Virus record (IMG/VR): IMGVR_UViG_3300045012_000037
Span: 1 to 48,034 of that record
Direction: 5' to 3' (one strand)
Origin: a virus
Length of the DNA stretch: 48,034 nt
In this document: piece after piece, positions 9,003 through 41,592 of the stretch
How the letters are laid out: every line of letters begins with the position of its first letter
Position numbering within the stretch: the first letter of the stretch is position 1
Notes under the pieces: model-generated
Seen by the model: the letters and a program-made list of their open reading frames with translations, nothing else
Databases searched by the model: none
What the model was told of the DNA's origin: nothing
Made by a program: the position numbers and the translations under genes

Positions 9003-9028
9003 GCCGAGGAGCCTTGGGCGGGGCTAGA

Positions 9029-9049
9029 TTCGCGCGCAACGCACGGTCC
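9029..9049. promoter_or_regulatory. conserved late-arm motif copy 1 (ATTCGCGCGCAACGCACGGTC)
   Basis: In the 87-bp spacer between the gp16-like gene and the fiber gene. The core ends 35 nt upstream of the fiber ATG 9002 on the minus strand. Confidence 0.6.
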
Positions 9050-9089
9050 CTATGCCGCTCAATCAGGCTACGGCAGCGGCGATAGCCCA

Positions 9090-12000
9090 TTACTGCGGCA
9101 ACATGTTTTTCTGAATGATCTGGCCCTGCATGGTGCGGATAACATCATTACCGCTGCGGGCGACCTGGATCATCGAATAGTAGAGCTGATCAATTAATTG
9201 CCGCTTTTCTGCCGGCGGGACTTCTGGATTTTTATAGATGTCCTGCACCAGCTTGGAATGCTCGTTGAGCGTCTGAGCGACCGAATCCAGCCGCATGAAC
9301 ATCGACGGGCCGCCCATGTCCACGATGTGCTGGGTTGCCACCACGTCGCCATCCCTAGCCTTCGCCATGAAGGTCGTGAAATAGGACTTGTTCCGCTCGT
9401 AGTTGTCGTAGAAATCTTGGATCGATTGCGCGCTGGTCGACGGATAGCGGACGACAAAAGCCCTGATTATAGGGATGTCGGCGAGCGTCGCGGTTGGCTG
9501 CGGCGGATCGGGCAGGATGCCTTGCTTGCGCAGCGCTGTATCGGCCGCGGTCAGTGCATAATTGCCGAGCGTGCCGGTCCAGCCGCGGATATAGTTCTCC
9601 ATCAGGATCGGGCTGGTAATCGCCCGCGCAATGCCGCCCGAGGCAGACTGATCCATCTTCACATCGCTGATGCCGGGGAACGCGCCGACAATGCGGCCGA
9701 CCGCCTTAGTCAGCTCTGTTGTGTAAGGCGTGTACTGATATTCCGGCAGGAATTTCTCCTGTGCCGAAGGGATCAGTGTGCGGTTCGTAAAGGTCGAGCG
9801 ATTGGCGAATTGATCGACAATCGGCGCAGCCGCAGTCGGCACAAACTCCGGGCCAACCTGCGTCCAAAACTGCTTGAAAAAATCCTTGAACGCATCCGGC
9901 TTCTCGCCGACGTATTGGTCGAGCAGCCGTTCCGGCAGCGTCCCAAACACCATGCCCATTGCCCACGGCTTCGGGATACGAAACACGTGGTCCGGCGTCA
10001 TGACCAGCCAGAACATATCCTTTTGCCACTGCGGGATTTCAGCATAGCGTGGATCATCGTGATTGGCGGCCCACAGCGCCACAGACGGCACCGTAACGGC
10101 AGCGCCGATCTTGACCAGCGACGAGATCGGGTTGTCGCGGATCGCGCGCACCACGCGGTCGCTATCCTGCAGTTTGATATTGGCGAACGCGGTGATCAGA
10201 TTATAGGCCCGCATGTTGGCGCCCATGCGCGCGGCGTCGACTGCCGTGTCGCGCGAAACCCACGCGGCACGGATGGCCTTGTCGCGCAGATTGGTAGCCT
10301 CAGGCTCGGCACGATCGGCCGCGCGCATCGACTTCTTGAATGCCGCAAGGTGGCTGGCGTTCTCAGCGAATTGCGTGGCGGCACGCAGCGGGTCGAGTAC
10401 GAACTTGCCGATGGCCTGGAATGGCAATTTGCCAAGCGCCCCCGCCTTGTCCCACATCGAGGCTTCCGGGTCGGCCAGCACATTCCAGGCGCGGCCCGCG
10501 AGCCCGGTTTGGCCGGTCAGTTTACGCAAGTCCTCCTGCAGATAGCGCCGGTCGATCCCAACCGAGGAGATATTGCCGCCGCCGCCTTTGAGCCAATTCC
10601 AATAATCCTCGTCCTTCATGATCAGGCCGGCGAAGCCCTTGCCCATGTCGATCGGGCTGAATACGCCCTCCTTGAAGGTGGTCATGGCATAGAGCAAGTC
10701 GCGTAGGACGTGGCGGCCCCAGAATTCAGGGGTCGAGACGGCGCCGGCGCGCAGCGTCGAGGCCGGGAAGGCCAGTGCCCGCTCGAGCATGCTCATGCTC
10801 TGGGCGTCCAAACCCTTCATGGCGCGGGCGAGCTCGGGATCGACCGAATAGGTTTCCCGCTTGCCGTCCCGCAGGATCGAGATTTGGCCCTCGCGCTCAG
10901 GCTCGCTGGCCTGGGCGAGCGCTTGGGCCAATTCCTCAGGACGCCTCACGCCGGACTCAGCGAGGGTGTCCGCTATCGCCCCAGCGCGGGGCAGCTCAGG
11001 AAGGCGCTCGGCCGTAATGGCCGCCGGCGACTCTGGGAAGGCTTTGGCGCCCCCTTGTAGCATATCGACCAGCTTGGTTCCGACTACGTTCCGCTCGGCC
11101 ATTTCGACCATATGGAAGGTGTTGCGGACCACGCTTTCGACCGGGTCGACGATGTCGCGGGCCGATCCTTTGATGGCCTTGATCGGATTGTGGGCCTGCA
11201 GGGATGAGCCGCCGACCGCTGGCGCCCCCTCGTCCAGCCCCATGACGCGGGAAAACGGCACATACATCTTATTGGCGTCGACCATGGCCTTATAGCCGTT
11301 GGCCGAAAGTACCCCGGAATCGCGCAAATATGCGCCCACCCGATTCTGGTAGTCGACCAGATCGCGGAACGGCTTTTCGTACTTGTCGCGGCCTTCGGCT
11401 ACCACGGTGCGCGCGGCATCCAAGCCTGACGACACCAGCGGCGGCGCACTTGGCTGCTCGGGAAAATTGAACCCGCTTTCGACGCCCCTGCCCTCCAATT
11501 CGAGCGCGCGGGACGCCGTGGCATAAGCCCGAAAGCCGTTCAGATCCTTCGCCACCGGCCGCAGGATCGACTTGAGCGACGGGCCATTGTTCTCATAGGT
11601 GGCAAAGTCGAACGTGCCATTATTGAGGAAATGATCGGCCTTCCCAGCATACCCCGCCATCAGCCGGGCAAGCTGATAAGGATTATTTTCCGCAGTCAAA
11701 TCCGGCAGGTCGGCCTCCTTCACTGCCTTGGCGATCGGGAACAACTTGTCGATGAAGCCGGTATAGAGGCCGTCCCATGTCAGCGCGCGCTCGGGCGCCT
11801 TCTCGTCGATGCTGATCTTGGACAGGATTTGCTTTTCGGCGTCGCCGTAGGATGGTGGCCGCCCCGGCCCGCCCCCTGGCGGTTCTGGCGGAAGATTGCC
11901 TATACCGCCGCCTACCGCCTTTGCTTGAGAAGCAATTTCTTGAGGCAGGTTAAATTCTGCGCCAGTCGCGGCCCCAGCTTTTTGCTCATACTTTGACAGA

Positions 12001-13079
12001 TCGGCTTCGGAGATATCGACGTAGGAAAGTTGGCCGCCGTAGGATTTTCTAAATGGCAGGGCAATACCTGGCAGGTCATTTGTAAATTGAGTTGCTGTGC
12101 CTACTTCGCCAGAACGATTGCCACGCCAAAGTCTAGCAAGCCCATCCTCGACTGGCGGCAACGATTGTTCAATCGCGGCGGCCTCCATTCTAAATTGTAC
12201 AATCGGCGGACCATAAGCCGCCGGCATGTCGCCGCGGTCGCTCGACAGTATGCTTTGTGCAATCGTTGGATCGGCTTGCGCATCATGTGCGACTTCAGCC
12301 GGATGGACACCCTTGTCTTGGTAGAGCTCGGCTAGCTTAGCCTCGACCTTGGGCATAGCGTCGCCGTTGCCGATGGCCGTTGCCGCATTGGAAAAGTCCT
12401 GGCCTTTGGGCAAACCGCCAATCTCGGTGATTTCTGGCGTGCCCATTGGCCCCATGCCCACGCGCATAACCGACCGACTGCCGAGCGCCATCATGGCGGT
12501 GTCGGTGATCTTCTTGGCATCCTCAAAGGTTACGCCGCCCGGCGTCAGTCCTTCCGCCCGCTCAGCTTGCCTGACCCTATCCTCGCCGTACATCCTGACC
12601 GCCGCGTCGCGCATGACGCCGGCGGCTGCGACGATCGGATGGCCGGCAAAGGCGTGAACGGCGCCGACTAGCGGGGCGAAGGGCAGCGCGGCCATGTCAA
12701 CCAATCCAAGACCAGTACGGCTAATGCCCTCTGCCGCACCTTCCTTCTGCGGCTCGCGCGCACCGCCAAATTCCTTCGGCAATAGATTGGCAACCGCATC
12801 TTTGAACGTGTCGACCGTATTGGAAATGGCCTCGCTCGGAATATCAGTGATCGCCTTGGGCAGTTTGCTGATCGCCTGCGATAACATGCTGCCGCTCATG
12901 ACCCGTTGCACGACTGACTGCGGCACGCCCTCTGGCGTCGCCGGGATGCCCATGTGTGCGTCGATCTCGGCGTCAGTGAAGCCGGCGGCCTGATAGGTGG
13001 TGCGCAGTCCGGTCAGATGATCGGTGATTTCCGCATCGCTAAATCCGGCGTCGCGGTACGTGCTGGCAAGATCAGGCAT
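9090..13079 (-). CDS. large internal virion (ejection) protein, T7 gp16-like by size and position
   Basis: 1329 aa (T7 gp16 is of similar size). Last of three core-protein genes after tubular B. N-terminal duplicated AGF(S/T)DAEI motif. Confidence 0.7.
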   Translation of the reverse strand: MPDLASTYRDAGFSDAEITDHLTGLRTTYQAAGFTDAEIDAHMGIPATPEGVPQSVVQRVMSGSMLSQAISKLPKAITDIPSEAISNTVDTFKDAVANLLPKEFGGAREPQKEGAAEGISRTGLGLVDMAALPFAPLVGAVHAFAGHPIVAAAGVMRDAAVRMYGEDRVRQAERAEGLTPGGVTFEDAKKITDTAMMALGSRSVMRVGMGPMGTPEITEIGGLPKGQDFSNAATAIGNGDAMPKVEAKLAELYQDKGVHPAEVAHDAQADPTIAQSILSSDRGDMPAAYGPPIVQFRMEAAAIEQSLPPVEDGLARLWRGNRSGEVGTATQFTNDLPGIALPFRKSYGGQLSYVDISEADLSKYEQKAGAATGAEFNLPQEIASQAKAVGGGIGNLPPEPPGGGPGRPPSYGDAEKQILSKISIDEKAPERALTWDGLYTGFIDKLFPIAKAVKEADLPDLTAENNPYQLARLMAGYAGKADHFLNNGTFDFATYENNGPSLKSILRPVAKDLNGFRAYATASRALELEGRGVESGFNFPEQPSAPPLVSSGLDAARTVVAEGRDKYEKPFRDLVDYQNRVGAYLRDSGVLSANGYKAMVDANKMYVPFSRVMGLDEGAPAVGGSSLQAHNPIKAIKGSARDIVDPVESVVRNTFHMVEMAERNVVGTKLVDMLQGGAKAFPESPAAITAERLPELPRAGAIADTLAESGVRRPEELAQALAQASEPEREGQISILRDGKRETYSVDPELARAMKGLDAQSMSMLERALAFPASTLRAGAVSTPEFWGRHVLRDLLYAMTTFKEGVFSPIDMGKGFAGLIMKDEDYWNWLKGGGGNISSVGIDRRYLQEDLRKLTGQTGLAGRAWNVLADPEASMWDKAGALGKLPFQAIGKFVLDPLRAATQFAENASHLAAFKKSMRAADRAEPEATNLRDKAIRAAWVSRDTAVDAARMGANMRAYNLITAFANIKLQDSDRVVRAIRDNPISSLVKIGAAVTVPSVALWAANHDDPRYAEIPQWQKDMFWLVMTPDHVFRIPKPWAMGMVFGTLPERLLDQYVGEKPDAFKDFFKQFWTQVGPEFVPTAAAPIVDQFANRSTFTNRTLIPSAQEKFLPEYQYTPYTTELTKAVGRIVGAFPGISDVKMDQSASGGIARAITSPILMENYIRGWTGTLGNYALTAADTALRKQGILPDPPQPTATLADIPIIRAFVVRYPSTSAQSIQDFYDNYERNKSYFTTFMAKARDGDVVATQHIVDMGGPSMFMRLDSVAQTLNEHSKLVQDIYKNPEVPPAEKRQLIDQLYYSMIQVARSGNDVIRTMQGQIIQKNMLPQ

Positions 13080-15190
13080 CAGCGCAACCCGGTTCGCTTA
13101 TCGAACTCATCTAGCGTTTCGCCAGGCTCGCGCTTTGGAATTTGTGCCGCGGCGGGCATGACTGGCCCAGGCGCTCCCTGTCCGGTCATCTTTCTTGTCA
13201 TCTCGGCCATAGAGTCCTTCAAGGACTTCTGGAATGGCGCAATCACTTCCGGCTTGCCGAGATAGTCAGGCTTGGAAGGATCAAACAAGTCGAACGGGCT
13301 TTTCTTGGCCGCACGATATTCGTCGATCTTCTGATCGACATATCGCTCAAAGGCGAAATTCTGCATCTTACCGCTGGCGTCGATCTTGCCCATGATCGGA
13401 TTGGAATTGTCAATCAAAGGCTCTACTGCCTTGGAAAATTGCGCGCGCAATGGCGCAAGCCTGTCACCGCCTGCGGTGCGCGCATCGGTAAAGCGCTTCT
13501 CTAGCCATTCCTCATCGGCGCGCGTGAGGGCGCCGGCAATGTAGGCATCGCGCACCGGCTTTAGATCGCTGATCTTGCCCGGATCAGTCTCGTCAAGGCT
13601 CATGCGACGGAACAAGTCCATGGCATTCGATTGCGAGACCTTGGCAATCGGTTCCGGCATGTCCTCGCGCTTTACCCAGGACAGCATTCGCATTTTGGAT
13701 TCGGGCGACACATCGGTCGCCGTTTTAATCTCATTTTCAGTAATCTGCGGGCTATCACTCGCGCGATCCTTGATGACACTATCCTCGAACGTCTGATCGC
13801 GTTGCTTCTGCCCAAGATCGGCGAGGTTGGTCTGGCGCACAACATCATCGCGATATTCCTTTATCGCTGCCAGCCCCTTCTCATAGTTGATCTGCCGCTG
13901 CGCAGGCGGCACAGATTCGTCGGTGCGCATGGCCTCGACCGCCGCCAAGGCTCGCTCAACGCCGCCCTGCATCGTGCCGGGGCCGCCTGGCTGTCCCTGC
14001 ATCGCCAGCGGACTCGGCCGCTGCCCGCTTATCCAACCCTCAATCGGCTGTCCGGTGATGGCACGCACATAGTTGCGTGTTTCTGCAGGCATTGCTGCAG
14101 GGTTGGCGCCTGCGGCCATCCACTGTGCAACATTCTTCTCACCCCAATTATAGCCAGCAAGTGCCAGTCCGGTATTGCCGCCAAACTGTTTGGTCAGGTC
14201 AGACATATAACGGGCCTGACCCTCGATCGATGATTGAGGATCGCGCACGTTGACGCCGTAGCGCGCGGCGGTAGCCGGCATGAACTGTGCGATACCTTGC
14301 GCACCAGCCGGACTGACGGCATTGGTGCGAAAACCGGACTCCTGATAAAGCTGGCGAGCCAGCAAGTTCGGGTCGAGACCGTAACGCTGTGCTGAATCGT
14401 TGATCATCGGCTGATAAGGCGCCGATGGATTTTTCAGCATCTTGCCGACATAGTTCTCGAATGCCGCACCGTTCATGTCTTGATGCAAATGGTTCAGGAA
14501 TAAATCGGCTTCGCCCTTCGACGCCTGCAGGAGCGGACTGCTGGTTCGCTCATTGACGAGGGCGTGAATATCGGTAATCAATTGCTTAGCTTGTGGCGTA
14601 TTGACGCCGCCATTTAGGATAAGACTTTTCAAATCTTCGGACTTTGACTCTATGGCTGCCCTTGTGTCACGGTCGAAATTCTGCGTTATCTTTTGCTGCT
14701 GTTCATTAGCCAGCCGCCGATAATTGAATGTCGTAGTGGTGTCGATAGCTCGGCTAAGAGATAGCCCAACTTCGGGACCAGCCTGATCCGTGACCTTTTG
14801 AACAAGCGTGTCGCGGAATTTATTTGAAGCCGCCAGGTATTGATCCGGGTCGTTTGGGAATTGTTTGCTGATAGCAATGTCTTGGCGCTTTGCCTCGCCG
14901 TCAGCCTGTGCCAACGCTGAGAATTTCATGGCGCGGCTATAGGCGATACCGGCCTCGCCAAAGATCGGCGTATGAGCAACCGACATGTTGCCCTGGTCAT
15001 CCATGGTGACCGACTGCAATCCAGCGCGTTCGGCAAGCGGCGTAGCTAAGGCTTCCAACCCTTCGCCGGCCTTATCAAGCGCCTGTCCGAGCATTTGATA
15101 GGGTTGCGCAACCTCACCAGTGCTGACCCGCGAGACAGGGGCGTCGCTGGTTACAACAGATTCCGGCCTGACTTCGGTGGCTTCCGGCAT
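13079..15190 (-). CDS. internal virion protein with soluble lytic transglycosylase (SLT) domain
   Basis: LYQESGFRTNAVSPAGAQGIAQFMPATAARYGV matches the SLT catalytic signature (ES...GLMQ/AQF MP.TA). gp15 position. Confidence 0.8.
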   Translation of the reverse strand: MPEATEVRPESVVTSDAPVSRVSTGEVAQPYQMLGQALDKAGEGLEALATPLAERAGLQSVTMDDQGNMSVAHTPIFGEAGIAYSRAMKFSALAQADGEAKRQDIAISKQFPNDPDQYLAASNKFRDTLVQKVTDQAGPEVGLSLSRAIDTTTTFNYRRLANEQQQKITQNFDRDTRAAIESKSEDLKSLILNGGVNTPQAKQLITDIHALVNERTSSPLLQASKGEADLFLNHLHQDMNGAAFENYVGKMLKNPSAPYQPMINDSAQRYGLDPNLLARQLYQESGFRTNAVSPAGAQGIAQFMPATAARYGVNVRDPQSSIEGQARYMSDLTKQFGGNTGLALAGYNWGEKNVAQWMAAGANPAAMPAETRNYVRAITGQPIEGWISGQRPSPLAMQGQPGGPGTMQGGVERALAAVEAMRTDESVPPAQRQINYEKGLAAIKEYRDDVVRQTNLADLGQKQRDQTFEDSVIKDRASDSPQITENEIKTATDVSPESKMRMLSWVKREDMPEPIAKVSQSNAMDLFRRMSLDETDPGKISDLKPVRDAYIAGALTRADEEWLEKRFTDARTAGGDRLAPLRAQFSKAVEPLIDNSNPIMGKIDASGKMQNFAFERYVDQKIDEYRAAKKSPFDLFDPSKPDYLGKPEVIAPFQKSLKDSMAEMTRKMTGQGAPGPVMPAAAQIPKREPGETLDEFDKRTGLR

Positions 15191-18593: not shown

Positions 18594-18602
18594 GGGCTAT
18601 GC

Positions 18603-19349
18603 CTAGCCCGGAGGACCGCCTGGGCCGCCCCAACCGCCGATACCTGTCCGCGGCCATGGGCGGCGTATCAGGCGGGACGCGCTGATGCGCGGGTTGAAGA
18701 ACTGCCGTTTGGGCAATTGCTGGTCGTAGCGCGTGCGGGCCATTTGCAGCATGCGCTCGCCGGCCATCCACATCTTGTCGCCTTCGGCCGGATCCTCGTG
18801 CAGCCCGCGATAGATGCCGGACATGGTAAAGGACTGCAGGGCAAGGAGCAGCGTCGGCGTGCCGTTGGTGGAGTCGCACAGCGCCCCGGAATTGGAGATG
18901 TATTTGAGCGTGATGGCGGCCGGGATGGTCGGCGGGACGGTCACGGGCGGCGGGGGCGGGCCGCCAAGCGCATTGACCACAATCACAGGGCCGGTCGGCG
19001 TCCCCATGATACGGTAGAGCGTGAACTGATTGGTCTGGACGTTCTGCGGGTCCGTCGTATCCTGATTGATCTTGAGCCAGATGATATGCACGCAGTCGGC
19101 CGGGATTGGATAGGCTGTGTCGTAATCGGTATCCTGCGGCGGGGTCGGGCTCGGCTGCAGCGTCACAACCAGGGCGGCATAGCCCCAGCCGTGGCTTTCC
19201 ATGGCGAAGCCGAGGCCGCGGTCATAGGCCGGCGAGGCTACGTTCCACTCGTCCGAACCGTCATCGGCCACGTTGACGAAGTTGTCCCCGGTTGCAGCCA
19301 GGGCAGAGTTAATCAGGCTCAGCTTGTCGAGTGGCGCCGGGAATGCCAT
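18603..19349 (-). CDS. tail tubular protein A (T7 gp11-like adaptor)
   Basis: Directly upstream of the gp12-like gene. INSALAATGDNFVNVA parallels T7 gp11 NEMLSAVGESPVNTL. Confidence 0.65.
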   Translation of the reverse strand: MAFPAPLDKLSLINSALAATGDNFVNVADDGSDEWNVASPAYDRGLGFAMESHGWGYAALVVTLQPSPTPPQDTDYDTAYPIPADCVHIIWLKINQDTTDPQNVQTNQFTLYRIMGTPTGPVIVVNALGGPPPPPVTVPPTIPAAITLKYISNSGALCDSTNGTPTLLLALQSFTMSGIYRGLHEDPAEGDKMWMAGERMLQMARTRYDQQLPKRQFFNPRISASRLIRRPWPRTGIGGWGGPGGPPG

Positions 19350-19376
19350 GCTCGACGGTGCGCTGGGGTCGCCAAA

Positions 19377-19393
19377 GCGCGCAACGCACGGTC
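19377..19393. promoter_or_regulatory. conserved late-arm motif copy 2 (GCGCGCAACGCACGGTC)
   Basis: In the 58-bp divergent spacer between tubular A (ATG 19349) and the methyltransferase moron (ATG 19408). Confidence 0.6.
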
Positions 19394-19407
19394 AGGAAAG
19401 CCGCCAA

Positions 19408-20064
19408 ATGCTCAGAAGCGCCCTCAAAGCGATGATTCCCGAGCCCGTTCTAACGAAATTACGGAACGTCAAACTAGCATTCACGCCACATGATAAAATC
19501 TATAATGAACACTATTTTGAAGAAGAAGTTATAGATACCTCAAGTATCGGAGCGCCCATTATGTCCAGCACGCTCTACGATTGGAGGCGCCCAAAAACGG
19601 TCATCGACATTGGATGCGGAAGCGGGGCACTACTCGCTGCATTTCGCGAATTAGGCTGCGAGGTAGAGGGCTTTGAATACGCCAACGTAGGACTAGCCTA
19701 TTGCCGAGGTCGGAAAATACCCACGGAGAAATTCGACATTTCTGTCGATAGATTTCCTCAACGTCGAGCTGACCTGGTTGTAAGTTTCGAGGTTGCCGAA
19801 CACTTGGCGCCACGATACGCAGACCGATACGTTGAGCTGCTTTGTTCGATGTCAGCGGATATTGCCATGTCTGCTGCAACGCCAGGACAAGGCGGTACTG
19901 GGCATATCAACGAGCAGCCGCATTCATATTGGATCGAGAAGTTCAGGCAACGCGGCTACTTTTTCCTAGCCGATATTTCGCAGAAATTATCCCAGGAATG
20001 GTGCGACGCTAACATTGCATCGTGGTACTGCAATAACGTGATGGTCTTTTCTCCGCGATCTTAA
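19408..20064 (+). CDS. class I SAM-dependent methyltransferase (non-DNA type), opposite-strand moron
   Basis: Motif I VIDIGCGSGALLAAFRELGCEVEGFEY, then VVSFEVAEHL and GHINEQPHSYWIEKFRQRGY. GGAAAG lies 7 nt before ATG 19408. The track start at 19273 would overlap the tubular A gene. AT-richer than its surroundings. Confidence 0.75.
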   Translation: MLRSALKAMIPEPVLTKLRNVKLAFTPHDKIYNEHYFEEEVIDTSSIGAPIMSSTLYDWRRPKTVIDIGCGSGALLAAFRELGCEVEGFEYANVGLAYCRGRKIPTEKFDISVDRFPQRRADLVVSFEVAEHLAPRYADRYVELLCSMSADIAMSAATPGQGGTGHINEQPHSYWIEKFRQRGYFFLADISQKLSQEWCDANIASWYCNNVMVFSPRS

Positions 20065-25511: not shown

Positions 25512-25512
25512 G

Positions 25513-26368: not shown

Positions 26369-26388
26369 AGCGGGAGGTTCCACCTGGC

Positions 26389-28503: not shown

Positions 28504-28524
28504 CGTGATTTCTCCTTGTCGCGA

Positions 28525-29478: not shown

Positions 29479-29491
29479 CGCTCAGCCCTTC

Positions 29492-29707
29492 CTATGGATT
29501 GCTTGCGCTAGGGGTGTAGGTCCACGCACCGAGCGCCGTATTCGGCGTACCCGCCGCATTGGTGCCCTTGATTGATCCCGTCGTCGTCGCGCCTTGGCCG
29601 CGCTGGATTTCCGCGGCGGCAATCTCACAAACTTTCGCCAAATAGCCTGCTTCGGCAGATTTCTTGTCGAACACCTGATCGACAATTGTGATGACCATGA
29701 CCGTCAT
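29492..29707 (-). CDS. 71-aa protein, tandem paralog 2
   Basis: MTVMVITIVDQVFDKKSAEAGYLAKV...AWTYTPSASNP. ATGA overlap with paralog 1. Confidence 0.65.
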   Translation of the reverse strand: MTVMVITIVDQVFDKKSAEAGYLAKVCEIAAAEIQRGQGATTTGSIKGTNAAGTPNTALGAWTYTPSASNP

Positions 29708-29919
29708 GGATTGCTCGCGCTCGGCGTATAAGTCCAAGACCCAAGCGATGTGTTCGGCGTTCCGGTCGCGCTGACGCCGTTCATCGTGCCTGACGTGACC
29801 GTGCCCTGCTTTTTCTGAATGTCAGAAGCGGCACGCAATAAAACCCTGGCGAGCCATTGGACCTCGGCTGACTTCTTGTCGAACACCTGATCGTTGATGG
29901 TAATGGTCAGCACGGTCAT
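29704..29919 (-). CDS. 71-aa protein, tandem paralog 1
   Basis: MTVLTITINDQVFDKKSAEVQWLARV...SWTYTPSASNP. 4-nt overlap with the scaffold gene stop. Confidence 0.65.
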   Translation of the reverse strand: MTVLTITINDQVFDKKSAEVQWLARVLLRAASDIQKKQGTVTSGTMNGVSATGTPNTSLGSWTYTPSASNP

Positions 29920-30749
29920 CGCTGCGCGCCGTTGAACTGCGTCTGATCAAAGCCGCGCGCATAGTCGAGGCGTTCGCGCGCCGACATTTTGGCAAACTGC
30001 TCGTCGCTGACACGACCCGGCGCTTGCGGCGGTTCGCGTCCGTTGGCGCGGAATGGCGCCCCGCCTTGGCTCGAGACTTTCTGAATCAGTTTCTCGGCGA
30101 TGGCGATGTCGCTCGCTGTGAACATGCGGGATGCGAGTTGTGAGCCCTCGGCCTCGCCGAGAAATGACTTGAAAAACGTGGTGACTGCGGTGACGCGGGC
30201 GGTGCCGTTGGCGCCGAGCTTGGAGACTTCGGCGGTGCGCGCGGCGGTAATGCGCGCCTGATCGGCGACCTGGGCGCCGGCATAGAGACCGAGCAACTTG
30301 GAGAATGCCTCCTGCCCGCTCACCTTGCCGGCATCGATGTCGTGCATGACCTGGCGGGCGAGCGCGAGATTCGGATCGGCGTCATTGAACTTGAAGTCGA
30401 CGCCGTCCGGCACCTTGAAGTCGGACGGCAGCTTGACCTCATATTTGTCGGGTGAATCCGGCAGCGCCAGCCGACGCACGTCATCAGCGGCGACGCGCGC
30501 CTGCAGCGCGCTGAAATGCTCACCAAATTCCTTGTCTTTGACTTTGCCGGCGGTTGCGTCCCAGAAGGTCTCGGGAACGTAAGCAGGCCGCGCGTTAGTT
30601 GGTGCTGCCGCTGGTGCCGGAGCCGGAGTTGGCGTCGGTGTCCCAGCCGGCGATGGCGGTGTCGAGGGTGACGCGGCGACGGGCGCCGCGGGGGTGGGTG
30701 CGGGTGTCGACGGGCTCGGCGATGGCGAAGGTGACGGCGTATCGGTCAC
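29916..30749 (-). CDS. putative scaffolding protein with P/S/T/A-rich N-terminal region
   Basis: Positioned between portal and capsid. Helical, charged C-terminal two thirds. GTG start. The first ~50 residues are PSPSPSPSPSTPAPTPAAP... and overlap the upstream ORF. Confidence 0.5.
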   Translation of the reverse strand: MTDTPSPSPSPSPSTPAPTPAAPVAASPSTPPSPAGTPTPTPAPAPAAAPTNARPAYVPETFWDATAGKVKDKEFGEHFSALQARVAADDVRRLALPDSPDKYEVKLPSDFKVPDGVDFKFNDADPNLALARQVMHDIDAGKVSGQEAFSKLLGLYAGAQVADQARITAARTAEVSKLGANGTARVTAVTTFFKSFLGEAEGSQLASRMFTASDIAIAEKLIQKVSSQGGAPFRANGREPPQAPGRVSDEQFAKMSARERLDYARGFDQTQFNGAQR

Positions 30750-30960
30750 TGTCAGCTATTCCCTTGCCCATGTGGGCCATCAGATCGGCCGCGAAACTGC
30801 GGCGACCCTCATTCGCGCGCAACGCACGTCCCGGCATGTTGGGCGTGGTGACCCCCAACCTGACCTTCTGCAAGTAGCGATAAAGAAGCTGGCCATCGGC
30901 GGTACGCGCGATGCGATCCATGACCTGCGTGATGTCGTCCGATGTGATTTCTTCGGTCAT
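30595..30960 (-). CDS. small protein downstream of portal
   Basis: 121-aa ORF. ATGA overlap with the portal stop. ...DGQLLYRYLQKV...RALRANEGRRSFAADLMAHMG looks protein-like. The 3-prime 155 nt overlap the scaffold ORF. Confidence 0.55.
   Translation of the reverse strand: MTEEITSDDITQVMDRIARTADGQLLYRYLQKVRLGVTTPNMPGRALRANEGRRSFAADLMAHMGKGIADSDRYAVTFAIAEPVDTRTHPRGARRRVTLDTAIAGWDTDANSGSGTSGSTN
30811..30831. promoter_or_regulatory. conserved late-arm motif copy 3 (ATTCGCGCGCAACGCACGTCC)
   Basis: 18-nt exact match to copy 1. 70 nt upstream of the scaffold GTG 30749, inside ORF 30595-30960. Confidence 0.55.
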
Positions 30961-32585: not shown

Positions 32586-32800
32586 CAGACCCTACCGCCG
32601 TATCCCTGGCCGGTGCTCGTTGGCGAGAGCGGCGAAACGGTTGTGCCAGCCATCGCAAGCTGCGTGCCGTAGCGCGCCATGAGCGACGCCATATCGCCTT
32701 GCGTTTTATCCTGCAGCGACGAGACAAGACTGTTCTGCGCCTGCTGCTGCTCAGTCAGGAGGTTGGGATCGGTGGGGATTTGGGGCGTGGATGGTGTCAT
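32585..32800 (-). CDS. small Q/S/T-rich protein upstream of portal
   Basis: 71-aa ORF. 1-nt overlap with the portal start. Confidence 0.5.
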   Translation of the reverse strand: MTPSTPQIPTDPNLLTEQQQAQNSLVSSLQDKTQGDMASLMARYGTQLAMAGTTVSPLSPTSTGQGYGGRV

Positions 32801-33212
32801 CTAGGCGCGTGCCGCCATTTTGCATCAGATGGCGGTATAGGCCGCTAGGCGTCATTCGGGCGCAACGCACGCCTAGAAGGTGCTTGATGGCGGGCACGCA
32901 ATAAAAACCAATGCGCGATGACCAGCTCATCGGCTGATGTTGCCGGGTAAACATCACCACTTCGCAATCGGCCATGTACTTGAGCAATGTTGCCTTGGCT
33001 GTCGGCCCGGCGGCCAGCAACATGAGCCGCGTACCACTTAGCTGCGTGTCATAGACCAGCCAGGCGCGAAAGCCGGGGCAATAAGCGAATGCCGAAACGT
33101 GCTTGAAGCGGCCGCAAGCCAACATACGAAGCCATAGGCCAGGCGTCCTAGTATGGAAAACGACGTTCCATACTGTCGGTTCGATGGCATCAGGAAGATG
33201 GATTTCGTCCAT
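32751..33212 (-). CDS. hypothetical protein between terminase and portal
   Basis: Internal ATG 33212 of track ORF 32751-33269. Product MDEIHLPDAIEPTVWNVVFHTRTPGLW... Confidence 0.55.
   Translation of the reverse strand: MDEIHLPDAIEPTVWNVVFHTRTPGLWLRMLACGRFKHVSAFAYCPGFRAWLVYDTQLSGTRLMLLAAGPTAKATLLKYMADCEVVMFTRQHQPMSWSSRIGFYCVPAIKHLLGVRCARMTPSGLYRHLMQNGGTRLDDTIHAPNPHRSQPPD
32854..32873. promoter_or_regulatory. conserved late-arm motif copy 4 (ATTCGGGCGCAACGCACGCC)
   Basis: 17 of 18 identical to copies 1 and 3. Bracketed by the inverted 7-mers CGCTAGG/CCTAGAA-like CTAGGCG...CGCCTAG on the minus strand. 62 nt upstream of ATG 32800. Confidence 0.5.
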
Positions 33213-33344
33213 TCCAGAATGCCTCGAAGTCTTTTTTTTCTTTCTCGTACTGTTCGATGGCGGCCTCAAGATACCGTTTAACCTGCGTACGAAATTCCGG
33301 CGTGCCTTTATCCCCCTTTATGAGTTCAAATGATTTGGCTACGT

Positions 33345-34850
33345 TCATGCCATGACCCTCCGCATTGTTCTTCGCTCCGGCCGCATCCTGATCGGCGTGA
33401 TTTGCCCGATCGGCTGCAGCCCGATCATCCTACGCCCTTCGCCCAAGGTAAGACAGAAATATTGCGCACAATCGCACAGGTTCGAGTATTTGTCCTTCTT
33501 CGGGCGCAACTCGCCATCTTCCTCGCGCACCAGATGATAGCGGCCGGCCATGCCGACGATGAGGGTCCGACACAGCGGCGAGATCACCAGCCGGTTCTCG
33601 CCGCGGGGATTGTCGTTGAGCGCATAAGCCACCGCCTCGGTGCGCTCGGCGATATTGTTCAATTTCACCGGCGCCGGCGTCACCGGCATGCCGTTGAACT
33701 TGAAAATGTCGTAGGAACTTTGCTCGGTCTGCTGGCCCTTGTCGCGACCCTTCGGATCGCCGACGCAGCGGAAATTGTGGCCGGTATAGTGCTGCTCGAG
33801 AAAGCGCTTGACCTTTGGCGCAAACACCGACGCCGGCTCATTGAAGCCGAGCATTTCGTACTGGAAATAAATGCGCTGGTTGACCTCCTGGCCGAACAGC
33901 GCTGCCGGGAAAACGCGGCCAAAATCGAGCGCCACAATGACATCGTGCCCCGGTATCGGCCGCAACGGCTCGCGCGCAACGTGATATTCGCGGCGGAACA
34001 TCGGCCATACCGCCTGACCGTCGACCACCAACGCCACACGATTCATCAGGCGAGAATCGATCCAGGCCCGCGATTTGCCTGGCCACATGCGCGAATAGTA
34101 CGTGTCCGGCAGGTTTTTCAGGTTTTCCGCGTGCGAATTGACCTCGTAGCCAAGACTGTTGCCGCGCTCGTCCATACGCTCGATCAGCGCCGGCGGCTGC
34201 ATGTAATATCCCCATTCATGCGGCCAGACGTATTGCAGCCGTTCGTCCTCGCTCAACCCCGGCGGCAGGTCGACTTGCCCGGTCATCATGGCCAGCCAGC
34301 AATCCTCATCTGGCGCGTTGCCATCGGCGATGATGCCGCGCCAGGTCGGACCACCGTGCTCGTCGCCCGGATAACGTAAGCGGGAATCCGCCTCGTCGAA
34401 AATCTCCTTGGGAATAAATGGCAATTCGTTAAAGAAAATGCCGGTGTATTCCGTCGACCGCAGCTTCTTCACGTCGTCAGGCTTGTCGAGCGACATGAAG
34501 TCGAATTCGGTGCGCACATCGGAAAACGAGATCCTGTGCTGCATAAAACCCGGCGCCGAGTTGAAGCGGCCGTACATTTGTTCGGGAAATGTCTCGAGCC
34601 AGGTGCGCATAGTCGAGCGCTTCAAGTCCGGCATGGTATTGCGAACGAGCGCAAAGCGGGTGCGGCGCAAACCGTCGACCGGCGACTTGCCCTGTTCCTG
34701 CGCATGCCGCATCAGACGTACGCAGCACGCCTTGGTCTTGCCGGATCCGAGCGGTCCCTGAATATAGTCGACCGGCCTATTCGATGTCATGAAATCGGCG
34801 ACTTTGGTGCCGGCAATGACCTCGAACGGGTTTTCCGTATCGACGCCCAT
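33345..34850 (-). CDS. terL: terminase large subunit
   Basis: 501 aa. Walker A GPLGSGKT near the N-terminus. Nuclease-sized C-terminal half. Upstream of portal. Confidence 0.85.
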   Translation of the reverse strand: MGVDTENPFEVIAGTKVADFMTSNRPVDYIQGPLGSGKTKACCVRLMRHAQEQGKSPVDGLRRTRFALVRNTMPDLKRSTMRTWLETFPEQMYGRFNSAPGFMQHRISFSDVRTEFDFMSLDKPDDVKKLRSTEYTGIFFNELPFIPKEIFDEADSRLRYPGDEHGGPTWRGIIADGNAPDEDCWLAMMTGQVDLPPGLSEDERLQYVWPHEWGYYMQPPALIERMDERGNSLGYEVNSHAENLKNLPDTYYSRMWPGKSRAWIDSRLMNRVALVVDGQAVWPMFRREYHVAREPLRPIPGHDVIVALDFGRVFPAALFGQEVNQRIYFQYEMLGFNEPASVFAPKVKRFLEQHYTGHNFRCVGDPKGRDKGQQTEQSSYDIFKFNGMPVTPAPVKLNNIAERTEAVAYALNDNPRGENRLVISPLCRTLIVGMAGRYHLVREEDGELRPKKDKYSNLCDCAQYFCLTLGEGRRMIGLQPIGQITPIRMRPERRTMRRVMA

Positions 34851-35437
34851 CAGGCGATCAATCGGGCTTGTTGCGTCAGCAGCATCCGCGCGCGGGCGGC
34901 TTGGAGGATCGGCAGGATCTTGGCGTCCAGGCTATCCTCGCCCTCGTCGGAATCCATGCCCACCTCATAAGGCCCGGTGTATTGGTCCGGCGCCACCGTA
35001 TCGACGGAAATGCGCTGCCCCTCATCCTCGGAAATGTACGTAAGCCACTCATCCTCGTAAGCGGCGATCTCGTCGTCCGACCAGCCATCGAGCTTGAGCA
35101 GCATGTGCTCGTAGCCGGTCGCCCACCAATGCGCCGACCGCGCGCCGGGCCCGACCCAATATTTCATATCGAGCCGCGTCATCATCCACCATTCGAAGCC
35201 CTCATGGCCACTGACGTACTTGTCGGGCTCGATCCCCATCTTGAAACGAAGCGGCACATTCTCGTCGACATAGGTCATCGCGCCGTCCATGGACCGGCCG
35301 GCACCGTATGGAACCAGGAACTTGCGGGACACAATCGAGTGACGCGGCAGAAAATTCTGCAATCCAACCTGCCGCTGGATCAGGCGCACCACGGCGCTTA
35401 CCCCCGCAGCATCGGTATGGCGATGCCCGGAGCTCAT
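34850..35437 (-). CDS. hypothetical protein with strongly acidic C-terminal region (alternative small-terminase candidate)
   Basis: 195 aa. 1-nt overlap with the terL start. Contains ...DDEIAAYEDEWLTYISEDEG...MDSDEGEDSLD. Confidence 0.6.
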   Translation of the reverse strand: MSSGHRHTDAAGVSAVVRLIQRQVGLQNFLPRHSIVSRKFLVPYGAGRSMDGAMTYVDENVPLRFKMGIEPDKYVSGHEGFEWWMMTRLDMKYWVGPGARSAHWWATGYEHMLLKLDGWSDDEIAAYEDEWLTYISEDEGQRISVDTVAPDQYTGPYEVGMDSDEGEDSLDAKILPILQAARARMLLTQQARLIA

Positions 35438-35685
35438 TCGATAGTCCTTGTGCGCACAATGCGGTCATGCTTGTAGAATTCGAGCGCGCCTATTTCCTCA
35501 CGGATCGACAGCGAAGCCGAAGATCGGTGACCCCACATTCCATCGGTTTCGCTGGTAAGAATAATCACGCCGGTCACGTTGCCAGCTTCCGCGTCGGCAA
35601 GTGCGTCGCGCAAAAGATCAATCACGCCGGCGCGGATTTCTTCATCTATCGTAGGCTTCGGAACAAGCCTGACAGGTTCGGTCAT
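35434..35685 (-). CDS. hypothetical protein
   Basis: ATG 35685 overlaps the TGA of the upstream Cys-rich ORF (TGATG). Product MTEPVRLVPKPTIDEEIRAG... Confidence 0.55.
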   Translation of the reverse strand: MTEPVRLVPKPTIDEEIRAGVIDLLRDALADAEAGNVTGVIILTSETDGMWGHRSSASLSIREEIGALEFYKHDRIVRTRTIE

Positions 35686-35822
35686 CAGTTCGGCCTCGCG
35701 TATTTTTCTGGTTCGCAAATCTTACAAAACTGATCCGGCTTGCATTCGCACTTGTCCTGTCGAATTTCGACACATGCCGCACATAAATCGCTTGTCCCGG
35801 TACAGTACGGACATTGCCGCAT
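35685..35822 (-). CDS. 45-aa Cys-rich zinc-ribbon-like peptide (below track cutoff)
   Basis: Hand-translated MRQCPYCTGTSDLCAACVEIRQDKCECKPDQFCKICEPEKYARPN. Eight Cys arranged as CxxC, CxxC, CxC, CxxC. Confidence 0.5.
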   Translation of the reverse strand: MRQCPYCTGTSDLCAACVEIRQDKCECKPDQFCKICEPEKYARPN

Positions 35823-35839
35823 TACATGCGTGATCTTGG

Positions 35840-36241
35840 TCAACTCATCCTCCCCGGAAACGGCAAGATATTCGGCATAAACGGCAGTCCAGGCCGCTGC
35901 GGTTCCTTATCGAACAACCGCGCCGCCCAACCAAAACGCTGCATTTTCTCGCAATGCCGAGCGATGATCTGCTCATCGACTTCGGTCTGCGGCGCCACCG
36001 TCACCCGGTCGTGCTGCCGCTCCATCTTCGCAATTAGCTTGACCCCCTTGAGCGGTGGCCCCTGCTCGCGGTCCCAAGTGATGATCTGCCCCGGAAAATC
36101 CGGCATCAACGACAGCCGACCCTCCTTCAACACAATCGACTTCACCGGCCCGATCTTGGAAAAATTCTCGCCCCACGCGCAAAGTTCCTCGTTGTAGCGC
36201 TCAATGAAATAATCCGGTATGCGCTCGAATACCGTAATCAC
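35840..36241 (-). CDS. hypothetical protein
   Basis: 133-aa ORF. 4-nt overlap with the upstream gene. Confidence 0.6.
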   Translation of the reverse strand: MITVFERIPDYFIERYNEELCAWGENFSKIGPVKSIVLKEGRLSLMPDFPGQIITWDREQGPPLKGVKLIAKMERQHDRVTVAPQTEVDEQIIARHCEKMQRFGWAARLFDKEPQRPGLPFMPNILPFPGRMS

Positions 36242-36648
36242 AGCTTGCTCTCATCGACGACCGCAGATCCGTTTGACGATCCAGGCAAAGGGGGCATGTT
36301 CCCTAGCTGCCGCAACTCCCCTTCCATCTCCGCAAGTTCCGCCTCGTGCGCCGTCAAATGATGGTCAGCCAGCGCAAACTTCTCATCCCCCGCCCGGTCC
36401 ACAGCCTCAATCCGCTCCATCAAAGCAACAGCACGCTGTTCAAGCTTCGCCTTCAAAGCCGTCATCGCCCCGCCTACCATCGCTACCCTGCTCACACGCC
36501 TCTCCCCAATGTTCCGCCGCAATACCGCGTCAAACCGTGAAGCCGCAGACCGATACCGCGCATACGCCGCATCCGCCTCAATCTCAACCCGATGCCGCGG
36601 GTCACGCCATTCACCCACATGCAAACCCCAAATGTTTTGCAGGCCCAA
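36238..36648 (-). CDS. hypothetical helical protein
   Basis: 136-aa ORF with a non-ATG (TTG) start in the track. The start is uncertain. Confidence 0.5.
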   Translation of the reverse strand: MGLQNIWGLHVGEWRDPRHRVEIEADAAYARYRSAASRFDAVLRRNIGERRVSRVAMVGGAMTALKAKLEQRAVALMERIEAVDRAGDEKFALADHHLTAHEAELAEMEGELRQLGNMPPLPGSSNGSAVVDESKL

Positions 36649-36714
36649 TATTTTTTGACCCCCCGCTAAATCCAGCCCAAGTTGTGCGAGCGGAGATTAG
36701 GAGCCGACGCGAAG

Positions 36715-37296
36715 TCATGAATTTTCCCTCCCGGGTCGCCTCGGCGCGGTTTCAATGGATGGTCGCGACGCATCGGATGGTCGAGCACTGCCGACTAGCT
36801 GCTTGCTAGACTGATGGTCTTGCGCTGTTTCATCAATGACAACGGCATTTGCAGCACTTGATTGCTGATCTGGGAAGCCCATGGGAATACTCGCGGGCTG
36901 CTGCTGTACGACAGTCACGACACGAATAGTCACGCCAGGCGATGCACTTATGCCTGATTGACGCTGCGAGTGATCGTCACCGAGTTCCTCGAGCAATTTG
37001 ATTGCATTCACTGCCGGCATATTGTCGGCTGCATCACGGATTGCGACCAGACGATGAATGTTGCGCGGCGACACGCTGGCTCTAAGTACCTGCCGCTCCC
37101 TATTGAGATATGCGAGCACATCTGGCCGAGCCAATGCACGACGCATTGATCGGACGTGATAATTGAACGTCCGGGCAGCAACATCGTACGTCATACCTTC
37201 CCAGATCATTGCATCAAGGGCTTGGCGCAGCTTACCGCGGATTTCGCTGCGTTTTTCGATTGATGGACGTTGTTCGGCGATTGCTACATCGGACAT
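36715..37296 (-). CDS. HTH DNA-binding protein, possible terminase small subunit
   Basis: 193 aa. ...ALDAMIWEGMTYDVAARTFNYHVRSMRRALARPDVLAYLNRERQ...AVNAIKLLEELG resembles the TerS N-terminal HTH pattern. One of the first genes of the late arm. Confidence 0.45.
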   Translation of the reverse strand: MSDVAIAEQRPSIEKRSEIRGKLRQALDAMIWEGMTYDVAARTFNYHVRSMRRALARPDVLAYLNRERQVLRASVSPRNIHRLVAIRDAADNMPAVNAIKLLEELGDDHSQRQSGISASPGVTIRVVTVVQQQPASIPMGFPDQQSSAANAVVIDETAQDHQSSKQLVGSARPSDASRPSIETAPRRPGRENS

Positions 37297-37305
37297 TGTG
37301 TCACG

Positions 37306-37506
37306 CTATGGGATGTGCTGGCCTTTGCAACGCACGGTCTCGGCTATTTGCTGCATTTCGGCTTTTGACATTGGCTTGATGATCTCGGCTTTTAAGAGCC
37401 TGTGCAGTCTGGCGTTACGCTTGGCAACCTTTGGATTGAACTTGAACGGCATCCAGCGTTTGCCGGATGTGGAGAACGTCGAGCCTGTACCTCGCAGCTT
37501 GTCCAT
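37306..37506 (-). CDS. small basic protein
   Basis: 66-aa ORF. First ORF after the 335-bp gene-poor gap. Confidence 0.45.
   Translation of the reverse strand: MDKLRGTGSTFSTSGKRWMPFKFNPKVAKRNARLHRLLKAEIIKPMSKAEMQQIAETVRCKGQHIP
37327..37339. promoter_or_regulatory. conserved late-arm motif copy 5 (GCAACGCACGGTC)
   Basis: The core ends 31 nt upstream of ATG 37296 of the TerS-like gene. Confidence 0.5.
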
Positions 37507-37631
37507 GCGTCACGCTGGCGCCTTCGCTTACGCTCCGTTGCCGGTCCTCGCATCCGCTGCGGATGGTCGGCTATCGCCGGCCTTTTCTCGTTTGTCTCTC
37601 CTCGCGCGATAACATGCCTGTCAACTCTCGC

Positions 37632-37643
37632 CCAACGCACGTC
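37632..37643. promoter_or_regulatory. conserved late-arm motif copy 6 (CCAACGCACGTC)
   Basis: In the gene-poor 37507-37841 segment. On the minus strand it is followed within about 10 nt by a perfect TTGACA. Confidence 0.4.
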
Positions 37644-41535: not shown

Positions 41536-41543
41536 TGGCTCGG

Positions 41544-41571
41544 ATTATGCACATCACATAACGCTTGTCAA
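41544..41571 (-). promoter_or_regulatory. leftward early promoter with embedded palindromic operator
   Basis: Minus strand: TTGACA (41571-41566), 16 nt, CATAAT (41549-41544). Operator TTATG-N7-CATAA at 41545-41561. The cro-like ATG at 41535 is 8 nt past the -10, so the mRNA would be leaderless or nearly so. Confidence 0.65.
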
Positions 41572-41592
41572 TGTCTCGTACATAATAGCGTG

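Follow-up and report, generated by a model that had tools for sequence, protein, structure and literature searches.

The question raised by this viral DNA is why one 9-nt word, CGTGCGTTG when read along transcription, recurs along the late genes, and what reads it; the whole stretch of 48,034 nt that was analysed is called the window. The original prediction was of a phage-specific late promoter or activator site, and this proposal is now supported in part by the conserved position, strand specificity, nucleotide constraint, fixed spacing and genome-specific variants of the word. We consider it probable that this temperate podovirus, which has no RNA polymerase of its own, possesses a class of late promoters whose extended -35 region is the motif; that they are active and fire late, where they start and which factor reads them are what we infer from sequence.

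A strand-specific word along the late genes

The core word occurs six times on the late-gene strand of the window and once on the other strand, seven copies in total against 0.97 expected (about 0.5 per strand), and none of 100 shuffles reached seven. Neither a balance between the strands nor a lack of enrichment over shuffled sequence, either of which had been named beforehand as fatal to the idea, was therefore found, and the motif is a genuine signal. One-mismatch variants of the core are not enriched in the window, so the core is strictly kept, and a degenerate window scan with NNNC[GA]TTG[CGT] was uninformative, the signal lying in the strict word alone. All six plus-strand CAACGCACG copies that had been listed by eye exist, with the correction that the one given as 9038-9046 lies 1 nt away (Table 1), and the start-codon distances of 31, 32, 62, 70 and 126 nt stand, with that to the fibre gene being 34 rather than 35 nt. 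The similarity beyond the core is also real, with ATTCGCGCGCAACGCACG exact at 9028-9045 and 30811-30828 and matching at 17 of 18 positions at 32854-32871, and GCGCGCAACGCACGGTC shared by 9032-9048 and 19377-19393. The other strand had been thought free of copies; it holds one, CGTGCGTTGG, which is probably a chance occurrence, since about half a copy per strand is expected and no credible plus-strand gene follows it. The statement that the motif marks every late-module boundary was too broad, as copies are absent before the capsid gene, TerL and the genes downstream of the fibre, and copies 3 and 4 lie within conserved coding genes rather than at clean gene boundaries.

Table 1. Copies of the core word and associated features of the window; distances are to the start codon named.
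Feature	Position	Strand	Setting	Distance (nt)
Copy 1	9037..9045	-	TTGCGC, 17 nt, CAAGGC (9011-9016), 8 nt, fibre gene ATG at 9002	34
Copy 2	19382..19390	-	TTGCGC, 18 nt, CACCGT (19355-19360), 5 nt, tail tubular protein A ATG at 19349	32
Copy 3	30820..30828	-	within conserved small gene 30595-30960 after portal; TTGCGC, 17 nt, CAGTTT (30794-30799)	70 (to 30749, probably not a real start)
Copy 4	32863..32871	-	3' part of conserved gene 32751-33269, between TerL and portal	62 (71-aa gene at 32800)
Copy 5	37328..37336	-	TTGCAA, 16 nt, TAGCGT (37303-37308), 6 nt, TerS-like ATG at 37296	31
Copy 6, first late box	37633..37641	-	CGTGCGTTG then G; non-coding gap after early genes	126 (66-codon ORF at 37506)
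Seventh core copy	4423..4431	+	antisense within minus-strand gene 3766-4503	
Early promoter, internal yardstick	41544..41571	-	TTGACA, 16 nt, CATAAT, 8 nt, Cro-like gene ATG at 41535	33 (from TTG)
Candidate recognition factor	38829..39413	-	194-aa protein; predicted XRE-type helix-turn-helix and long basic C-terminal helix	

Copy 6 is followed by a -10-like TTATCG/TATCGC at about 37606-37612 and then by a leader of about 95 nt, and orthologous copies lie in the corresponding gap of L003 (5215), L004 (5310), L009 (4328), L019 (6540) and L030 (6069). Orthologs of copy 5 stand 31-35 nt upstream of the TerS-like ATG in L002, L006, L023, L027, L029 and L130. For copy 4, a consistent -10 could not be placed. 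Copy 3 is about 225 nt upstream of the likely scaffold start, and an in-frame ATG (30778-30780) lies 39 nt after its TTG. Copy 2 sits in the intergenic region between two divergent genes, that of tubular A and, on the opposite strand, one for a methyltransferase (19561-20064), an arrangement found in more than 25 orthologs. Copy 1 lies 44 nt past the stop of a 1329-aa internal virion protein, and in the closest relative, L077, GTGCGTTGC occupies the equivalent place, likewise 34 nt from the ATG.

Conservation in relatives and constraint on the nucleotides

Absence of the motif from relatives with the same gene order was another outcome named in advance as refuting the idea; instead, more than 60 uncultivated relatives keep it at equivalent sites, namely upstream of the TerS-like, tubular A and fibre genes, and within both the gene preceding portal and the small gene following it. 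Across 652 kb of related loci, the coding strand carries 93 copies against 12.4 expected, and the other strand 9 against 23.9 expected. These orthologous positions hold even where the portal or tubular A proteins share only about 31-75% identity. Near-identical DNA was not found in known phages; among isolates, Microcystis phage Mwe-JY08 comes nearest in its portal protein (41% identity), and HTVC010P-type pelagiphages are next with about 22%. Rfam and tRNA scans gave no match, and literature searches on the word, on Mwe-JY08 and on leaderless late promoters returned nothing relevant.

The motif is a signal in the nucleotides and not in the peptide: among 26 orthologs of the gene before portal the word is read in all three frames (VRC in 5, CVA in 8 and (G/R)AL in 13). 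Together with the non-coding copies, this rules out a peptide motif. The word in copy 3 always encodes Ala-Leu, and there the Ala codon alternates between GCG and GCA, tracking the motif class of each genome. A hexamer CANNTT follows 17 nt past TTGCNN in 24 of 25 unique relatives at this site, L021 having GATCCT, and all 25 keep the A of the hexamer. Every one of these 25 also has ANN as the variable codon, across seven different amino acids, with Ser encoded by AGY and never by TCN, and Arg by AGG and never by CGN.

The form of the box is also proper to each lineage. L018 carries GGGCATTGC at 4/4 orthologous sites, L028 carries ATGCGTTGC at 4/4, and L012 has TCATTGC at all three orthologous sites within its locus, plus three other places. 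The flanks are genome-specific as well, permutation giving 0/2000 on the 5' side and 0 to 0.0025 on the 3' side. Since a lineage repeats its particular version of the box at every site, these variants point to a recognition factor that co-evolves with the box and is probably phage-encoded.

Promoter geometry and competing readings

Non-redundant instances of the motif number 164. In 51 of them, an ORF of 90 aa or longer has its ATG at 20-45 nt, and 44 of these 51 fall at 30-35 nt with a mode at 31-32 nt; permuted 8-mers give 18/379, spread evenly. The layout of a site is TTGCNN, then 16-18 bp, a weak CANNNT, 5-8 nt, and finally C(-1)A(+1)TG. In the 31-nt class, TTG lies at -34 to -32 from the ATG, and TTGC is invariant across the box classes. 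At ATG-aligned sites, C stands at -1 in 37/42, against 13/42 for other genes of the window by our own count, while A at -10 and T at -6 each occur in 22/42, -10-like statistics that come mostly from tubular A orthologs, i.e., from one gene, and are hence not independent. The original prediction held that no sigma70-like -10 follows the motif. We find a -35-like hexamer with TTG and, at 16-18 bp, a -10-like hexamer with A2 and T6 whose match to TATAAT is weak; because this weak element stands at sigma70 spacing, the best reading is a sigma70-family promoter with the motif as its -35 region. Two other promoter types were considered and rejected: a sigma54 promoter (GG-N10-GC or TGGCAC-N5-TTGC, with TTGC as the -12), in which GG is not conserved at -24 and positions -5/-4 from the 8-mer are uninformative, and an ECF/EcfG-type promoter with the motif as a CGTT -10, for which GGAAC was not seen by eye 16-17 nt upstream of the six window copies.

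We propose that each site along the late genes has the form RNS-GTGCG-TTGC, with TTGC in the place of the -35 hexamer, that a weak -10-like CANNNT (A2, T6) would follow at 16-18 bp, and that initiation would take place 5-8 nt later at C(-1)A(+1). At the TerS-like, tail tubular A and fibre genes, the +1 A would be the A of the ATG itself, giving leaderless mRNAs, while the gap copy and the two copies in the portal-flanking genes may give leadered or short-leadered transcripts. The Cro-like and repressor-like genes of the same phage apparently also have their promoters placed for a start at the A of AUG. No Shine-Dalgarno sequence lies between copy 5 and the TerS-like ATG, which is weak evidence for leaderless mRNAs, as such sequences are rare throughout the genome. 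The window gene at 32800 also has none; in several relatives, where the small gene before portal lies 57 nt from the box, GGAGG precedes its start by an unscored reading by eye. Such promoters would probably stay inactive unless a specificity factor works at the -35 region or beside it, because their -10 is a poor one and sigma70 does not normally read the GTGCG half. This factor may be an activator, a sigma-like protein or a sigma-modifying protein, and is most likely phage-encoded.

Alternatively, a host sigma alone, housekeeping or alternative, might direct host RNA polymerase to the same promoters, the differences between boxes then reflecting the hosts. TTGC is a reasonable -35 core in canonical geometry, and our scans detected neither a phage sigma nor a known activator family. 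However, the early promoters of this phage are near consensus (TTGACA/CATAAT), so the main host sigma needs no GTGCG; the five bases 5' of TTGC and the further flanks co-change at all sites of each genome; and the -10 is too poor for unaided sigma70. We thus regard host sigma alone as unlikely. Less likely again, and distinctly improbable in our judgement, is that the motif acts in RNA, on long late transcripts, as a processing site, as the target of a regulator of translation, or as an enhancer of translation standing a set distance from the AUG. Its constant sense orientation, its start-codon distance and its tolerance within coding regions would suit such a role, but the 31-nt ruler, C(-1)A(+1) and the A and T of the -10 fit promoter geometry and the yardstick of the early promoter, and neither secondary structure, on reading the site sequences, nor an Rfam match is evident. 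In several orthologs of copy 2 (L056-L058, L061, L020), moreover, a rho-independent terminator is directly followed by the box, an order that would suggest re-initiation rather than processing.

A cryptic phage-encoded polymerase acting in the manner of T7 or N4 is very improbable. The positions do recall the T7 promoters ahead of genes 9, 10, 11 and 17, structural genes of T7 type are present, and the window encodes a 956-aa protein of no known family that could be imagined in this role; yet no window protein scanned matches an RNA polymerase family, the motif-keeping relatives have no homolog of the 956-aa protein, which was rejected on this ground, and the conserved block, 9-13 bp ending about 31 nt before the inferred start, is unlike those of single-subunit polymerases. 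We give next to no weight to a signal of Chi type or one for packaging or replication, to a recurring peptide motif, or to a repeat arisen by chance: strand asymmetry is a feature of Chi too and copy 3 is always Ala-Leu, but the enrichment is far beyond chance, the placement is intergenic with a fixed relation to gene starts (44/51, against evenly spread controls) that a Chi-like or packaging site, as raised originally, does not fit, copies 1, 2 and 6 are non-coding, copy 4 uses three frames, and lineage variants extend to all sites.

A candidate reader of the box, its setting and known systems

A phage RNA polymerase gene had been reported absent, in agreement with our scans, which matched no RNA polymerase or sigma factor among 30 window proteins (Pfam) or 40 (PHROGs), so that the RNA polymerase of the host must be used. 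The window proteins do include integrase-like, repressor-like and Cro-like helix-turn-helix proteins. By position and fold, the XRE-type protein of Table 1 is a candidate for the recognition factor: in many relatives its homolog closes the series of conserved early genes that precedes the first late box, and it has about 60 homologs and no Pfam family. A first structure model was too poor (pLDDT 58); a second was good (pLDDT 82.5), with PDB matches only to the helix-turn-helix domain and at E > 0.29. XRE-type proteins usually bind dyad-symmetric sites as dimers, and the box is asymmetric, which weakens this candidacy. Of the small Zn-ribbon proteins suggested originally as serving the motif, the 64-aa CxxC protein next to the first late box (37842-38036) was rejected, as it has no detectable homolog in motif-keeping relatives and no match to Ogr_Delta.

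It is possible, though we hold it doubtful, that the XRE-type protein with its long basic helix represents an undescribed family of late regulators that binds an asymmetric site overlapping the -35 and turns the polymerase of the host to leaderless late transcription. Protein and box are also found as a pair in small integrase-bearing elements (L132-L134) whose available sequence lacks structural genes; if the proposal were true, this pair would allow cross-activation of the P2-P4 helper/satellite type in soil Rhizobiales.

The available pointers to the host, MAG labels and one protein name, are all to Rhizobiales. The motif would give a testable map of five or six late transcription units, each with its box, for a large clade of temperate podoviruses that is wholly uncultivated and probably has soil Rhizobiales as hosts. 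It also suggests leaderless mRNA expression of packaging and tail genes, and that promoters can persist within protein-coding genes at a price paid in codon choice and even in reading frame. In practice, the box may help to place gene starts and operons when related metagenomic contigs are annotated, and its lineage variants provide a natural experiment that could reveal which protein reads it.

Among known systems, the middle promoters of T4, with the MotA box, (a/t)(a/t)(a/t)TGCTTtA, centred at -30, likewise have an asymmetric phage box of about 9 bp that replaces the -35, in many copies before gene clusters, and likewise use host RNA polymerase, presumably with a phage factor as in the "sigma appropriation" by MotA and AsiA. 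They differ in the box (TGCTTtA in T4 and GTGCGTTGC here), in the -10 (a strong TAnnnT in T4, weak here) and in the genes served, which here are late structural genes of a temperate phage, with several mRNAs that would be leaderless; no MotA or AsiA family was found among the window proteins scanned with Pfam and PHROGs. The CII promoters of lambda (PRE, PI and PaQ) share a TTGC core at the -35 of a weak promoter and are served by a helix-turn-helix activator. CII sites, however, have TTGC-N6-TTGC around a poor -35, whereas here TTGC is single, being absent at positions 15-18 from the start of the 8-mer, and precedes late structural genes rather than those for the establishment of lysogeny.

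Phages Mu, with its C protein, and P2/P4, with Ogr and Delta, also place several late operons of a temperate phage under one activator-dependent signal with a poor core promoter, and the gene for the activator comes where their early or middle genes end, a further likeness. Their sites, in contrast, are dyad-symmetric and upstream of the -35 (for P2/P4, TGT-N12-ACA at about -55), and the box here is asymmetric and overlaps the -35, with upstream positions at or below 0.35 bit everywhere except the box-proximal -3 and -1; the scan of window proteins matched neither Ogr_Delta nor Mor/C. The promoters of the T7 group are likewise repeated, strand-specific and found before scaffold/capsid, tail tube and fibre genes, and differ in having their own polymerase and a block of about 20 bp that spans the start site, compared with a short block at -40 to -30 in the present phage. 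Finally, transcription of lambda cI from PRM also starts at the A of AUG; the arrangement proposed here would apply the same kind of start to late structural and packaging genes and tie it to a dedicated -35 box.

The repeated box and its genomic setting

The word CAACGCACG, which reads GTGCGTTG along the late genes, occurs seven times in the window, where dinucleotide-preserving shuffles predict 0.97, and none of 100 shuffles, a control that the original prediction had proposed, reached seven. All six plus-strand copies claimed by that prediction are present, the first having been placed 1 nt too far right, and a seventh, on the opposite strand, had been missed. The longer identities also hold: 9028-9045 and 30811-30828 have an identical 18-mer, of which 32854-32871 keeps 17 of 18 positions, and a 17-mer is common to 9032-9048 and 19377-19393; the start-codon distances were likewise correct, except at the fibre, where it is 34 nt and not 35. 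Copies 1, 2 and 6 are non-coding, and core variants with one mismatch showed no enrichment in a scan of the window. The three boxes of the 18-mer (one non-coding, two in different genes and reading frames) share nine more bases (CGCSCGAAT) beyond the core; conversion between copies, or recognition specific to the genome, might explain this.

Among the related IMG/VR loci, 32 collected via the portal protein and 40 via tubular protein A, GTGCGTTG was found 93 times on the coding strand, with 12.4 expected, and nine times on the other strand, with 23.9 expected. In these relatives, where the original prediction had proposed to look for the motif, the copies fall at equivalent positions and form orthologous groups (see table), and in several loci (L019 15334, L020 5434, L056-L058, L061) the box directly follows a rho-independent terminator.

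The two ends of the window are an exact direct repeat of 127 nt, and the window is therefore a circularly closed assembly, the genome being ~47,907 bp (~47.9 kb) long. It encodes integrase-like, repressor-like HTH, replication-initiator-like and Cro-like HTH proteins and a Dam-type methyltransferase, besides a minus-strand late block with TerL, portal, scaffold, capsid, T7-like tail tubular proteins A and B, internal virion proteins and fibre; the TerS-like gene of this block keeps its earlier label without a family match. No near-identical DNA was found in known phages; among isolates, Microcystis phage Mwe-JY08 has the most similar portal protein (41%), with HTVC010P-type pelagiphages next (~22%). 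Metagenome-assembled genome labels (Roseiarcus and Rhizobiales, with Terracidiphilus for a third contig) and one homolog named from Rhodoplanes point weakly to a Rhizobiales host.

Coordinates of the box copies and of associated features in the window
Feature	Position (strand)	Remarks or corresponding sites in relatives
Terminal repeat	1-127 and 47908-48034	
Opposite-strand core copy	4423-4431	
Box copy 1 (fibre)	9037-9045	34 nt upstream of fibre ATG, closest relative
1329-aa protein	9090-13079 (-)	position of T7 gp16; LPD38 'large polyvalent protein' domain, E = 1e-40; homologs of its C-terminal part occur in many unrelated phages (34-62% GC)
Box copy 2 (tubular A)	19382-19390	30-34 nt (mostly 31-32) upstream of tubular A ATG
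SAM-methyltransferase gene	19440-20064 (+)	likely start ATG 19561, giving a DIGCGSG motif; own AT-rich upstream region, TATAAT at 19501-19506; convergent with the 956-aa gene; appears to be a moron insertion
81-aa and 71-aa genes	29492-29919	adjacent, between scaffold and capsid; 79% identical over a 56-nt stretch; look like a tandem duplication
Scaffold ORF	29916-30749	
Small gene after portal	30595-30960	121 aa; weak Bbp19-like Pfam match; overlaps first 56 codons of scaffold ORF
Box copy 3 (gene after portal)	30820-30828	within small gene following portal
Box copy 4 (gene between TerL and portal)	32863-32871	within gene between TerL and portal
Box copy 5 (TerS-like)	37328-37336	31-35 nt upstream of TerS-like ATG
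Leader after first late box	37507-37632	plus-strand terminator-like hairpin at 37565-37582
Box copy 6	37633-37641	gap following early genes
194-aa protein	38829-39413	
Immunity switch	41536-41615 and 41985-42040	operator-like dyads TTATG-N7-CATAA at 41545-41561 and 42000-42016

Promoter-like geometry

Of 164 non-redundant box instances, 51 have, 20-45 nt away, an ATG that opens an ORF of 90 aa or more. For 44 of these the distance is 30-35 nt, with 18 cases at 31 nt and 13 at 32 nt, whereas permuted 8-mers gave 18/379, evenly spread. When 42 non-redundant sites are aligned on the ATG, TTG falls at -34 to -32 and a consensus CAcgGT at -11 to -6, with A at -10 in 22/42, T at -6 in 22/42 and C at -1 in 37/42; a hand count gave C at -1 in 13/42 of the other window genes. 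The composite layout, TTGCNN, ~17 bp, CANNNT, ~5 nt and C(-1)A(+1)TG, reads as that of a sigma70-family promoter whose transcript would start at the start codon, and the CANNNT element runs against the earlier statement that no sigma70-like -10 follows the motif.

Only two near-consensus sigma70 promoters are present in 28-42.5 kb, both early and divergent, and that of the Cro-like gene (TTGACA-16-CATAAT, 8 nt, ATG) has 33 nt from TTG to ATG. These two promoters (TTGACA-16-CATAAT) make up the immunity switch, each overlapping an operator-like dyad. ATG 41608, exactly 6 nt past a CATAAT, is the probable start of the repressor-like gene, which would therefore be leaderless as well, as is lambda cI. 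As Shine-Dalgarno sequences are uncommon genome-wide, the lack of one at the 31-35 nt sites lends weak support to leaderless messages. GGAGG precedes the start in several relatives whose small pre-portal gene begins 57 nt from the box (read by eye, unscored), and no Shine-Dalgarno was found before the window's own gene at 32800.

Past the first late box, short conserved blocks recur across relatives (L003 5223-5330, L004, L009, L019, L026, L030), one of them, ATCGCGCG, lying at the inferred start and another, GCGAGGACC, further downstream, together with small hairpins; this may be a regulatory leader.

Nucleotide-level constraint and lineage-specific boxes

In the gene before the portal, the word sits at a constant protein position in three reading frames (VRC in 5 loci, CVA in 8, (G/R)AL in 13), so that the DNA word is constant while the local peptide varies, which makes it a nucleotide signal. 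In the gene after the portal it is always Ala-Leu, with Ala as GCG or GCA following the genome's box class, that is, its lineage-specific version. The hexamer exactly 17 bp past TTGCNN is CANNTT there in 24/25 unique relatives, and the codon supplying its A is ANN in 25/25, whether for Ser, Arg, Met, Lys, Thr, Ile or Asn, with Ser as AGY only (11/11) and Arg as AGG only (5/5), and adjacent conserved arginines as CGN. Such a pattern would be expected if the key A of a -10 element were under selection. Most relatives also have an in-frame ATG 39 nt past TTG. The scaffold start at 30749 used in the original prediction is probably not real, since homology begins only at residue 57 of that ORF and the overlapping small gene is conserved over its full length; the scaffold probably starts near 30580.

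Three relatives carry versions of their own, GGGCATTGC at 4/4 orthologous places in L018, ATGCGTTGC at 4/4 in L028, and TCATTGC in L012 at all three orthologous places that its locus covers and at three others, with the spacing to the ATG unchanged (31-33 nt) where the box is upstream of a gene start. Members of the main class each have flanks of their own, namely aCC-GTGCGTTG-CGCGC in the window, ACG-GTGCGTTG-CG in L009, CG-GTGCGTTG-CGGCA in L013 and CCG-GTGCGTTG-T in L130 (genome-label permutation: 5' flank 0/2000, 3' flank 0 to 0.0025). Such concerted change at all sites of one genome points to a recognition factor that would co-evolve with its sites, with the constant TTGC as the part that host polymerase may contact. 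Tandem iteron-like, origin-like repeats in one relative (L015 960-1100; GATGCGTTGGCAATGCGAACGCAAT...) are unrelated to the box, though they have GCGTTG in common.

A candidate factor and the nature of the signal

As the original prediction held for RNA polymerase, the window proteins scanned gave no match to an RNA polymerase or sigma factor family. Its proposal of a Zn-ribbon protein serving the motif fares poorly for the 64-aa protein beside copy 6, which lacks a detectable homolog in relatives. The 194-aa protein has homologs in all motif-bearing loci reaching far enough upstream (~60 homologs, no Pfam family), and its gene is often the last conserved early gene ahead of the first late box, ending 3 nt before it in L023. 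A profile search against PDB sequences gave a marginal XRE-type HTH match (E = 0.05), and the confident model (pLDDT 82.5) places a basic helix of 40 residues after an HTH domain, with HipB, restriction-modification controller proteins and ClgR as top Foldseek hits (probabilities <=0.99, E-values >0.29). Against it, XRE-type HTH proteins usually bind symmetric sites, and the model and gene position make it no more than a possible recognition factor for the box. Homologs also occur in small integrase-bearing elements (L132 4365-10489, L133, L134 1-5060, L136 2758-10324) with no structural genes within the sequence at hand; in three of them (L132, L133 and L134) GTGCGTTGC lies 54-57 nt upstream of an RHH-led operon, the L134 element is followed by host genes, rnpA and yidC among them, and L136 has Toprim and AAA_25 genes. 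These may be satellites or prophage remnants with the same regulatory module.

Action of the box at the RNA level is improbable, as it would account for neither the C(-1)A(+1) step nor the -10-like constraint, nor for the agreement with early-promoter geometry. A sigma54, ECF, CII, Ogr/Delta or MotA site, a phage RNA polymerase promoter and the Chi-like signal once proposed each lack at least one defining feature.

In summary, the motif is genuine, it is conserved in relatives, and selection acts on it at the nucleotide level. The late promoter or activator site originally proposed fits in spacing, strand and conservation, with promoter activity, like every function named here, read from sequence: five or six late promoters, each with an extended -35 box, are most likely what it marks, and several of them would most likely give leaderless mRNAs; a phage-encoded factor is probably needed at these promoters. 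Late or middle promoters specific to a phage are a well-known kind of element, to which the box adds another example, and of some interest are the promoters kept inside coding genes and the leaderless structural-gene messages.
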